DNA from: Candidatus Heimdallarchaeota archaeon
GTDB taxonomy: Archaea; Asgardarchaeota; Heimdallarchaeia; JABLTI01
Direction of reading: 5' to 3'
Length of the DNA stretch: 32,000 nt
Assembly: GCA_030614005.1 (NCBI GenBank)
Contig: JAUWKS010000036.1
Location: 226 to 32,225, forward strand
The first letter of the stretch is position 1. Each line of letters starts with the position of its first letter. The translations under genes were made by a program, and so were the position numbers. The notes below the pieces were generated by a model. It was not told where the DNA came from and made no database searches. It saw only the letters and a program-made list of their open reading frames with translations. Shown here piece after piece: positions 18,127-18,984 of the stretch.

Positions 18127-18984
18127 CTAAATTGCAGATAAAATTAATACTACAATAACTAAAATGAGACTAACTAAAGAAACACCTAATGAAATAAATA
18201 AGATAATTCTTTGGAGCCTAAATTCTTTCATCCATCTCATACGAAATTTATTGAAATCATCTTTGTTGATGACAGTTTTGTTCATCTCTTCAAGAGCAGA
18301 ACTTAGTGATTCAAGGTCAGAACGAGTTTTTGCCAAACTTTTCTTGTGAACTTTATCTGCTTCAACAAACTCTTTTTTGGTGAGTAATGTTTTATTTGCA
18401 AGAGTTTCTAAAGATTGATTTACAGATAATGCCATCCTCATAGCAGTATTTTCAGCTATTTTCTCAGCACTTTCATGATCTTGAACATGGCTCGTTAACA
18501 AATCAATAATTTCATTTGGATTGGTCATTATTTTAAATGGCACTTCAAATGATTTGCCGTCAAATCCAACTCTAAAGAATTTAGCTTTGTAATCCTTTTG
18601 ATCCCGACTTTTAGCAAAAGCGTTGCCATCATTAACCATTGCAACAGCTTCTGGTAGCAATGCTTGATAGATTTGTTGAGTAGCAATATCTGTACCTGAC
18701 ATGAATACAGACATGCCTGGGTGTGTATGGTACCAACCTAAAATGACTTCTCCTTTTCCTCTCTCTTCTAATCGCTCTAGTATTTTAAATTGCATCATGT
18801 TATCAAATGAAACAAAAGTAGGATTTGATTCAGCTACTGCAAAAACTGCTTCAGTTATCAGAAGTTTTTCTTTCATTATTTTACCGATAAGATATCCACC
18901 TATTTCTCTTTCTGTATTTGTTGCAGTCCAATCAATTATCTTTGCATATGCTAACGGAGAAATCTCTACAGTAATTTTAGTCAT
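18127..18984 (-). CDS. MPN+/JAMM metalloprotease (Rpn11/CSN5-like) with C-terminal coiled coil and tail-anchor TM helix
   Basis: EREIGG Glu plus GWYHTHPGMSVFMSGTD, an exact H-x-H-x7-S-x2-D motif. The C-terminus is RLQR-IILFISLGVSLVSLILVIVVLILSAI*. Confidence 0.88.
   Translation of the reverse strand: MTKITVEISPLAYAKIIDWTATNTEREIGGYLIGKIMKEKLLITEAVFAVAESNPTFVSFDNMMQFKILERLEERGKGEVILGWYHTHPGMSVFMSGTDIATQQIYQALLPEAVAMVNDGNAFAKSRDQKDYKAKFFRVGFDGKSFEVPFKIMTNPNEIIDLLTSHVQDHESAEKIAENTAMRMALSVNQSLETLANKTLLTKKEFVEADKVHKKSLAKTRSDLESLSSALEEMNKTVINKDDFNKFRMRWMKEFRLQRIILFISLGVSLVSLILVIVVLILSAI

Follow-up and report, generated by a model that had tools for sequence, protein, structure and literature searches.

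CsRpn11 (Csub_C1473), from Candidatus Caldiarchaeum subterraneum, is an archaeal deubiquitinase of the JAMM metalloprotease family, which processes the ubiquitin pro-peptide and deconjugates ubiquitin without any partner protein (PMC5654768, PMC6043591). The enzyme is soluble, has 202 residues, lacks the Ins-2 insertion and carries C-terminal helices that are dispensable for catalysis, and the paper describing it nowhere mentions a membrane (PMC6043591). Here, we describe a gene at positions 18127-18984 (minus strand) of a 32,000-nucleotide stretch of DNA from a Candidatus Heimdallarchaeota archaeon (contig JAUWKS010000036.1; the whole stretch is referred to as the window). Its 285-residue product combines an Rpn11-like MPN catalytic domain with a helical stalk and a predicted C-terminal membrane anchor. 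From sequence comparison and structure modeling, the protein is best read as a zinc-dependent JAMM isopeptidase that belongs to the archaeal Rpn11-like clade, faces the cytosol and is tethered to the membrane; it is probably a tail-anchored deubiquitinase.

The window protein shares with CsRpn11 (PDB 6FJU, 6FJV and 6FNN) the MPN+ fold, the JAMM residues, the lack of Ins-2, the stand-alone character and the clade. However, CsRpn11 is soluble, is encoded beside a ubiquitin-E2-E1-RING operon, and has C-terminal helices that end in a basic amphipathic rather than a transmembrane segment, whereas the window protein has a stalk of about 90 residues and a tail anchor, and its gene has no linkage to ubiquitin genes. 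The eukaryotic enzymes Rpn11 (PSMD14) and CSN5 have a near-identical zinc-site sequence and also carry C-terminal helices after the MPN domain, but they are soluble, contain Ins-2, and are active only in PCI/MPN complexes with an MPN-minus partner (Rpn8 or CSN6).

A possible functional analogy is offered by AMSH (STAMBP) and AMSH-LP/Sst2, which are ESCRT-associated JAMM deubiquitinases acting on ubiquitinated cargo at the membrane surface. These enzymes are recruited peripherally via MIT and other motifs and have a zinc-bearing Ins-2 for lysine-63 specificity. On the other hand, the window protein is predicted to be integral, is more weakly similar to AMSH (E value of 7e-20), and has neither an MIT domain nor any other non-JAB-type domain that could be found with Pfam. 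The closest functional analogue is the endoplasmic reticulum (ER) isoform of animal USP19, a cytosol-facing, tail-anchored deubiquitinase that has a C-terminal transmembrane helix and takes part in the quality control of proteins near membranes (10.1101/2020.10.05.326363, PMC4197631). USP19 nevertheless has an unrelated cysteine-protease (USP) fold, is eukaryote specific, and is much larger. The JAMM1-type desampylases (HvJAMM1 and PfJAMM1) are likewise stand-alone archaeal JAMM metalloproteases that act on ubiquitin-like modifiers, but they are soluble proteins of about 140 residues in another JAMM clade, and the 145-residue copy in the genome of the window branches far from the window protein.

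Positions 18127-18984 hold a real gene under purifying selection. The list of open reading frames (ORFs) and their translations gives a lone, complete minus-strand ORF of 285 codons and a stop codon, and the short overlapping plus-strand ORFs were without support. Comparison with an ortholog of 87% identity gave an overall ratio of nonsynonymous to synonymous substitution rates (dN/dS) of 0.14 (MPN domain, 0.105; stalk, 0.18; tail, 0.22).

The MPN/JAMM catalytic domain spans residues 1 to 170 (18475..18984, minus strand), as judged from the Pfam JAB match, the confident range of the AlphaFold2 (AF2) model, and Foldseek. Residues 5 to 112 match the JAB/MPN family PF01398 with an E value of 1.5e-17 (63.9 bits against a cut-off of 22.5). 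The JAMM set is complete and consists of E27 (in an E-x-G-G-x-L-x-G element), H86 and H88 (H86-T-H88), S96 and D99; the surrounding sequences GWYHTHPG and SGTDIATQQ are residues 83 to 90 and 96 to 104, respectively. All five residues are invariant in two alignments, one of 31 close homologs and one of 21 homologs spanning the phylum. The codon of the catalytic glutamate (18904..18906, minus strand) encodes a residue that contacts the ubiquitin C-terminus in the complex model described below, and the zinc-binding core, H86-x-H88 ... S96-x-x-D99 (18688..18729, minus strand), aligns with the HSHP...SGVD core of human and yeast Rpn11. The AF2 model of the 285-residue protein, built with the alignment of 31 homologs, had a mean predicted local distance difference test score (pLDDT) of 81.8, and its MPN core was confident to about residue 170. 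The Ins-1 region (residues ~53 to 66) is highly conserved among the close homologs. Ins-2 is lacking, as residues 5 to 162 align without gaps to CsRpn11, which itself has no Ins-2.

By sequence, the closest characterised relative of the protein is the soluble Caldiarchaeum deubiquitinase CsRpn11, followed by Rpn11, CSN5, AMSH and BRCC36, in that order. When the protein was searched against the PDB with phmmer, CsRpn11 (6FJU/6FJV) was the best match (E value of 2e-30 over the same gap-free stretch), and eukaryotic Rpn11 (~1e-16), CSN5 and AMSH (~1e-10) and then BRCC36 came next. A family profile built from 21 members across the phylum ranked CsRpn11 at 5e-60, Rpn11 at 1e-33, CSN5 at 1e-28, AMSH at 7e-20, and BRCC36 at 3e-18, with eIF3h and Rpn8 below BRCC36; no JAMM1-type archaeal structure was among the best 60 of the 69 PDB matches to this profile. 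Identity to CsRpn11 is 34 to 39% over ~150 to 170 residues. The best Foldseek matches of the AF2 model were CsRpn11 (6FJU) and the CsRpn11-ubiquitin complex (6FNN), with target-normalised template modeling scores of 0.84 to 0.92, and the Foldseek probability was 1.00 for CsRpn11, Rpn11, CSN5 and BRCC36. In these comparisons the protein lies nearer to Rpn11 and CSN5 than to JAMM1 and JAMM2 or to AMSH and BRCC36. Look-alikes in the ESM Atlas were generic JAB clusters only, all below 0.9. A Pfam match to UPF0172 (EMC8/9) reached 22.2 bits, below the cut-off of 24.4, and was taken as general MPN likeness.

The C-terminal hydrophobic tail comprises the final 26 residues, 260 to 285 (18130..18207, minus strand), and contains no charged residue. 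Its best Kyte-Doolittle 19-residue window has a value of 3.11 and ends 3 residues from the C-terminus, and the 15 residues before the tail include 6 lysines or arginines, with a net charge of +5. These features, together with a pLDDT of 89 to 93 in the AF2 model, predict a single transmembrane helix within about 30 residues of the C-terminus, as expected of a tail-anchored membrane protein. The N-terminus forms the first strand and helix of the MPN fold in the model, which speaks against an N-terminal signal sequence. Among 107 distinct tails of the family, the uncharged span averages 26 residues, the C-terminus lies on average 3.1 residues past the hydrophobic core, and the upstream 15 residues hold on average 3.3 lysines or arginines. 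The hydrophobicity and length of the tail are kept across the family, but its sequence is not.

The catalytic domain and the tail are joined by a helical stalk (residues 171 to 259; 18208..18474, minus strand) whose sequence and length vary across the family, from about 90 residues in the Heimdall class to ~35 to 50 residues in other classes. DSSP analysis of the AF2 model places helices after the MPN domain at residues 173 to 198, 203 to 237, and 241 to 284. The pLDDT falls to 47 to 78 in the stalk, and the 89 stalk residues include no proline and no glycine. The original prediction, made from the letters of the DNA alone, had described an intact Rpn11/CSN5-like catalytic motif, a helical or coiled-coil stalk, and a single C-terminal hydrophobic helix preceded by basic residues. 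The motif was borne out by Pfam, the PDB searches and the family profile, and the hydropathy and flanking charge of the tail agree with the helix. The stalk is helical in the AF2 model, but a coiled coil is not established because heptad periodicity was significant in only one of the three helices tested (helix 203 to 237, p ~0.035), and we do not claim one. A further check named in that prediction, conservation of the tail, also came out in its favor: every full-length homolog retains the hydrophobic tail.

The tail-anchored form is found widely among the Asgard archaea. A first search returned 70 homologs of 266 to 307 residues at an E value of ≤1e-3, mostly labelled Heimdallarchaeota, and in all the full-length ones a hydrophobic stretch lies 0 to 8 residues from the C-terminus. 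A six-frame search of 399 genomes of the phylum found full-length matches of 47 to 87% identity only in the genus-level group of the window, and many other families with open frames of 220 to 310 residues and an MPN match at 30 to 43% identity. An MPN domain joined through a helical linker to a hydrophobic helix that ends 0 to 6 residues from the C-terminus was found in 15 family-level groups, both within and outside the class of the window. Named records with a tail-anchored MPN protein come from Heimdall-, Frey-, Hermod-, Jord-, Baldr- and Helarchaeota, and further members, from Candidatus Heimdallarchaeum aukensis, Heimdallarchaeota LC_2 and Kariarchaeaceae and from records labelled Thorarchaeota, emerged from a profile search. 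The tail anchor was present in 53 of the 54 proteins newly listed by the profile search, the exception being a partial sequence. Altogether, more than 100 distinct C-terminally anchored MPN proteins are present in Heimdall-, Jord-, Baldr-, Hermod-, Frey-, Hel- and Thor-labelled Asgard genomes, and they are annotated in the databases only as Mov34/MPN/PAD-1 family, as RPN8/RPN11, or as hypothetical proteins.

The distribution is also patchy. No tail-anchored form was present among the JAB matches fetched from Loki-type and Hod-type genomes, all of which were soluble; this check covered every JAB profile match in one closed Hod-type genome and in two closed genomes of a Loki-type family, and the three top matches in a second Hod-type genome. 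The JAB matches fetched from a genome of the largest family sampled likewise included no tail-anchored form. Soluble paralogs of ~300 residues are the sole Rpn11-like genes in the Hod-type genomes. The relatives in Aigarchaeota and Nitrososphaerota, which are of the CsRpn11 type, are soluble proteins of 203 to 241 residues.

Typical family members also occur in records labelled Zixibacteria, Bathyarchaeia and Deferrimicrobium, and these are probably mis-binned or mislabelled contigs. A different membrane architecture is seen in MPN proteins of 420 to 455 residues labelled Thermoplasmata (P0069 to P0071; one at L106:6965-8248), which retain an intact H-x-H-P and have a hydrophobic helix in mid-protein (~residues 190 to 230), followed by a long low-complexity or globular C-terminal region.

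We then modeled the complex of the MPN domain (residues 1 to 172, with its alignment) with the ubiquitin encoded in the same genome (with an alignment of six Asgard orthologs). The complex scored 0.85, while the best of three controls scored 0.01. That mark was reached by 58 of 80 solved complexes and by 2 of 110 mismatched pairs, counts that apply only roughly here because the complex was modeled with our own alignments. Three runs of the complex agreed in at least 98% of contacts, with a partner pLDDT of at least 92. In the model, ubiquitin residues 69 to 77 touch residues 27, 86, 88, and 96 to 99 of the MPN domain, and the Ins-1 segment (residues 56 to 66) lies in the interface. The model indicates likeness to a ubiquitin-binding JAMM enzyme and not binding itself.

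The host, a member of the Heimdall class of Asgard archaea, encodes ubiquitin, E1-like, E2 and endosomal sorting complex required for transport III (ESCRT-III) genes. The original prediction had counted on such an Asgard host with ubiquitin and ESCRT systems, and its deubiquitinase reading likewise fits the identity to CsRpn11 and the controlled complex model with the organism's own ubiquitin, as far as sequence and models can tell. The single ubiquitin gene encodes 77 residues ending in ...EGG directly before the stop codon and stands alone among nucleotide-metabolism genes on another contig (L012:9270-9503), and further contigs carry the E2 and E1-like genes. The genome holds three ThiF-type E1-like genes and also encodes Get3/ArsA homologs (contigs C32 and C82). 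Four JAB genes are present, encoding the tail-anchored protein, a 329-residue Rpn11-like protein, a 145-residue JAMM1-like protein (contig C63), and a 211-residue JAMM2-like protein, and all four retain the H-x-H motif.

The 329-residue paralog (C9:8560-9549, minus strand) has an intact JAMM motif and a C-terminal domain with a borderline match to TRAP_beta (translocon-associated protein beta; E value of 3e-5). It lies directly downstream of a gene for a Ras-like GTPase of 210 residues (C9:9637-10269, minus strand). No MPN-minus (Rpn8/CSN6-like) partner was found among the JAB genes of the genome, and the search for PCI domains in the genome gave two marginal matches of 26 bits, to the winged-helix end only, which four control prokaryotes match too. 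A proteasome-lid context was rejected on the basis of these marginal PCI matches and the missing MPN-minus paralog.

We infer the membrane insertion and topology of the protein, its catalytic activity, its action on ubiquitin over other ubiquitin-like modifiers in vivo, and its physiological targets from these comparisons and models, and the mechanism would run as follows. The protein would be made in the cytosol. After translation, its 26-residue hydrophobic helix would enter the cytoplasmic membrane, plausibly via the Get3/ArsA-type route encoded in the genome (for a review of archaeal Get3-like proteins, see PMC6593721), leaving no more than a few residues outside. The positive-inside flank and the near-absence of residues past the helix would keep the MPN domain cytosolic, on a flexible stalk of about 90 residues. 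The MPN domain would then bind the organism's own ubiquitin, whose ...R-T-E-G-G tail would pass between helix 3 and the Ins-1 segment to reach the zinc site (E27/H86/H88/D99), where the (iso)peptide bond after Gly77 would be hydrolysed. The net effect may be that ubiquitin is removed or recycled from proteins at or near the membrane.

Several points weigh against this assignment. The case for a tail-anchored deubiquitinase is computational throughout, and the transmembrane call is based on hydropathy, length, flanking charge, and conservation. The high score of the complex model may reflect likeness to the solved complexes CsRpn11-CsUb (6FNN) and Rpn11-Rpn8-ubiquitin (5U4P). The second Rpn11-like paralog, of 329 residues, could be the main deubiquitinase of the genome. 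In the genome of the window, the gene shows no link to ubiquitin, E1, E2 or ESCRT genes; in five other Asgard genomes the ubiquitin-E2 cluster lies either on a different contig or at a distance of between 46 kb and over 800 kb, and in one Jord-type genome it is another, soluble JAB paralog that abuts the ubiquitin-E2 pair. In addition, no tail-anchored form occurs in the Loki- and Hod-type genomes, which do possess ubiquitin systems. Since it is absent from genomes that have both ubiquitin and ESCRT, the tail-anchored form is not obligatory in the Asgard ubiquitin/ESCRT machinery.

It is also conceivable, although unlikely, that the main job of the enzyme is the maturation of ubiquitin precursors by trimming of extensions after Gly-Gly, with the tether incidental and no deconjugation of membrane proteins. 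CsRpn11 does cleave the nine-residue pro-peptide of its own ubiquitin (PMC5654768, PMC6043591), and in the six Asgard genomes sampled, ubiquitin ends in a bare GG in three and in GGPY, GGL and GGSVKY in the other three. Not every lineage would therefore need a maturation protease, and maturation may be part of the job of the enzyme in some of them but not in this one. Ubiquitin ends in a bare GG here and in two other carriers of the tail-anchored gene and thus needs no maturation, and a conserved anchor under purifying selection is hard to explain if the substrate is a soluble precursor. Maturation and deconjugation are in any case not exclusive, as CsRpn11 also deconjugates (PMC5654768). A substrate other than ubiquitin, either a SAMP/Urm1/ThiS-MoaD-type ubiquitin-like modifier or an unrelated peptide, would make the protein a tethered (iso)peptidase of another kind, which we consider slightly less probable again. 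The three ThiF-type E1-like genes make the existence of other ubiquitin-like modifiers probable, the archaeal JAMMs that fall outside the Rpn11-like clade act as desampylases (see the discussion in PMC6043591), and the tail-anchored gene has no operon link to ubiquitin. However, profile ranking and the tree group the family not with the JAMM1-type proteins but with CsRpn11, which accepted only its own ubiquitin and rejected SAMP precursors and human ubiquitin (PMC6043591), and the separate JAMM1-like and JAMM2-like genes could serve SAMPs. The complex model with the genome's ubiquitin far outscored its controls, a result that may stem from the similar complexes already solved.

The tail itself might be explained without a membrane, as an assembly or oligomerisation helix of a soluble complex. 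The eukaryotic Rpn11 and CSN5 assemble their complexes through C-terminal helices (PMC6043591), in the helical bundles of the lid and the signalosome (CSN), and the full model gives loose Foldseek alignments with full-length Rpn11, CSN5 and BRCC36. Nevertheless, 26 uncharged residues in a row with a 19-residue Kyte-Doolittle value above 3 are far more hydrophobic than bundle helices, the tail keeps its hydrophobicity and length but not its sequence, as is typical of lipid-facing helices, and the basic residues cluster on its N-terminal flank only. With the lack of an Rpn8-like partner and the nonspecific PCI matches noted above, a bundle helix is very improbable, and a tail-anchored deubiquitinase remains our preferred reading.

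The relationships within the family were analyzed with a maximum-likelihood tree of 84 MPN domains, from which eukaryotic Rpn11, CSN5, AMSH, BRCC36 and EMC8 were left out, their placement being taken from the PDB E-value rankings instead. The deep branches of this tree are poorly resolved. The tail-anchor label is strongly clustered, with 8 changes on the tree compared with ~28 in shuffles. An exclusive clade of tail-anchored forms was rejected by the approximately unbiased (AU) test (p-AU 1.2e-5) because the soluble proteins of the CsRpn11 type, together with a few derived soluble proteins of Asgard archaea, fall inside it. A single clade of the tail-anchored, CsRpn11-type and nested soluble Asgard forms is compatible with the data (p-AU 0.68), this clade having been named after inspection of the tree. 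The ~300-residue soluble paralogs of Hod and Heimdall genomes and the JAMM1-like proteins fall outside it. In the analysis of Fuchs et al. (2018), the Caldiarchaeum and Asgard JAMMs connect closest to Rpn11 (PMC6043591).

Because tail-anchored forms dominate this clade and the CsRpn11 type is nested within it, the tether might be ancestral for the archaeal Rpn11-like clade, with the soluble CsRpn11 and, ultimately, the eukaryotic lid and signalosome enzymes being secondary, although we regard this as rather doubtful. If the tether were ancestral, the first Rpn11-type deubiquitinase would have been on the cytosolic face of a membrane, in ubiquitin-dependent turnover or sorting of membrane proteins in Asgard archaea, as a forerunner of deubiquitination coupled to ESCRT or to ER-associated degradation (ERAD).

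The soluble CsRpn11-type proteins of Aigarchaeota and Nitrososphaerota end in a short, conserved basic amphipathic motif, such as FKKLKKRL, LLKKVKDKV or FFSKTKKLL (seen at 17 loci). The motif corresponds to the C-terminal helix H5, which is unresolved in the crystal structure of CsRpn11. Such ends resemble the membrane-targeting helices of MinD and FtsA, and the motif might give peripheral membrane binding where the Asgard relatives carry a transmembrane anchor.

What is new here is the architecture and its wide but patchy distribution among Asgard archaea, while the fold, the chemistry and the probable substrate are known. The original prediction was aware of no described example of the architecture, and our search agrees: no membrane-anchored archaeal JAMM/MPN protein and no integral-membrane JAMM deubiquitinase of any origin was found in the searchable literature, outside of which most subscription journals lie, so that absence is not proven. 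The CsRpn11 papers, the surveys of Asgard ubiquitin and ESCRT, and the classic survey of prokaryotic JAB domains contain none. It had also been foreseen that the architecture might turn out to be widespread and characterised; it is widespread, in over a hundred distinct proteins from many Asgard lineages, but with generic annotation only it is not characterised.

Ubiquitin signalling and its links to membranes, as in ESCRT sorting and ERAD, are hallmarks of eukaryotes whose origins in archaea are now being pieced together from the genomes of the Asgard group. Until now, CsRpn11 has set the pattern for the archaeal enzymes with the greatest similarity to Rpn11, and these have been regarded as soluble. 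The prediction that the Rpn11-like enzyme of many Asgard lineages is an integral tail-anchored protein would point to the membrane as a main site of ubiquitin removal in these archaea. Within the searchable literature it would be the first integral-membrane JAMM deubiquitinase described, and it would add a substrate class to the poorly known archaeal tail-anchored proteome. The catalytic domain of ~170 residues, the cognate 77-residue ubiquitin, and a defined anchor, all easily expressed, provide a handle on Asgard ubiquitination.

In the window, the gene is part of a co-directional series of genes encoding a long Ras-family GTPase, a DUF362 protein, the JAB protein, a HEAT protein, an FMN-dependent dehydrogenase-like protein, a second HEAT protein, L7Ae, S28e and L24e. 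Relatives down to ~50% identity share this gene order, with insertions of unrelated genes next to the JAB gene. We clustered the flanking ORFs of 24 loci and found no neighbor common to all lineages; the partners are lineage specific, and we therefore draw no functional inference from them. The tail-anchored gene is an independent unit, and its context offers no further functional clue. The roles suggested in the original prediction, membrane-protein quality control or cargo sorting, may apply but find no backing in the genomic context. No ESCRT gene was found in its neighborhood.

The group to which the window belongs has the GTPase and DUF362 genes upstream and HEAT genes downstream of the JAB gene. 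Directly upstream is the DUF362 gene (19073-20326, minus strand), whose product has two 4Fe-4S motifs; it holds this place in relatives down to ~50% identity as well. A TATA-like box, TTTTTAAAAA (19011..19020, minus strand), lies ~31 nucleotides upstream of the ATG of the JAB gene, in the 88-nucleotide spacer after the DUF362 gene, and from its sequence and position it may act as a promoter element. The DUF362 protein also has a terminal hydrophobic helix, which stops 3 residues short of the C-terminus (19-residue Kyte-Doolittle value of 2.58), and two predicted tail-anchored proteins therefore adjoin. The next gene (20391-21629, minus strand) encodes a Ras/Arf-family GTPase of 412 residues that carries a long, acidic, coiled linker and, at its C-terminus, a CxxC...CxxC zinc ribbon; in three relatives its counterpart, of 400 to 453 residues, is likewise encoded beside the DUF362 gene.

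Downstream of the JAB gene are two genes for HEAT/PBS-lyase-type repeat proteins (15228-16061 and 17276-18055, minus strand), with the FMN-dependent dehydrogenase-like gene (16093-17199) between them. This arrangement is present in two of three relatives, the third being without the first HEAT gene. On the plus strand, positions 21865-22710 encode a strongly helical, charged protein of 281 residues with no Pfam match, and a protein of the same size is encoded at the same place in all three syntenic relatives.

Other neighbors are found in other lineages. In other Heimdall families, a protein of 348 to 380 residues with no Pfam match but with a kinase-like H-x-S/D-N ... D motif (DYHQSN ... IDP) is encoded next to the tail-anchored JAB gene; its gene is immediately upstream and co-directional at seven loci (about 5879-6922, plus strand) and is also present at two more. 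In Jord-, Baldr- and Hermodarchaeia, the tail-anchored JAB gene has upstream of it a co-directional pair of genes for proteins of ~255 and ~405 residues, neither of which matches a Pfam family (genes of this pair were seen at six loci). The 255-residue gene is directly adjacent in Jord- and Freyarchaeia, and a short Freyarchaeota contig shows only this gene. The ~405-residue neighbor has weak homologs elsewhere in the genome of the window, on contigs C36 and C123.

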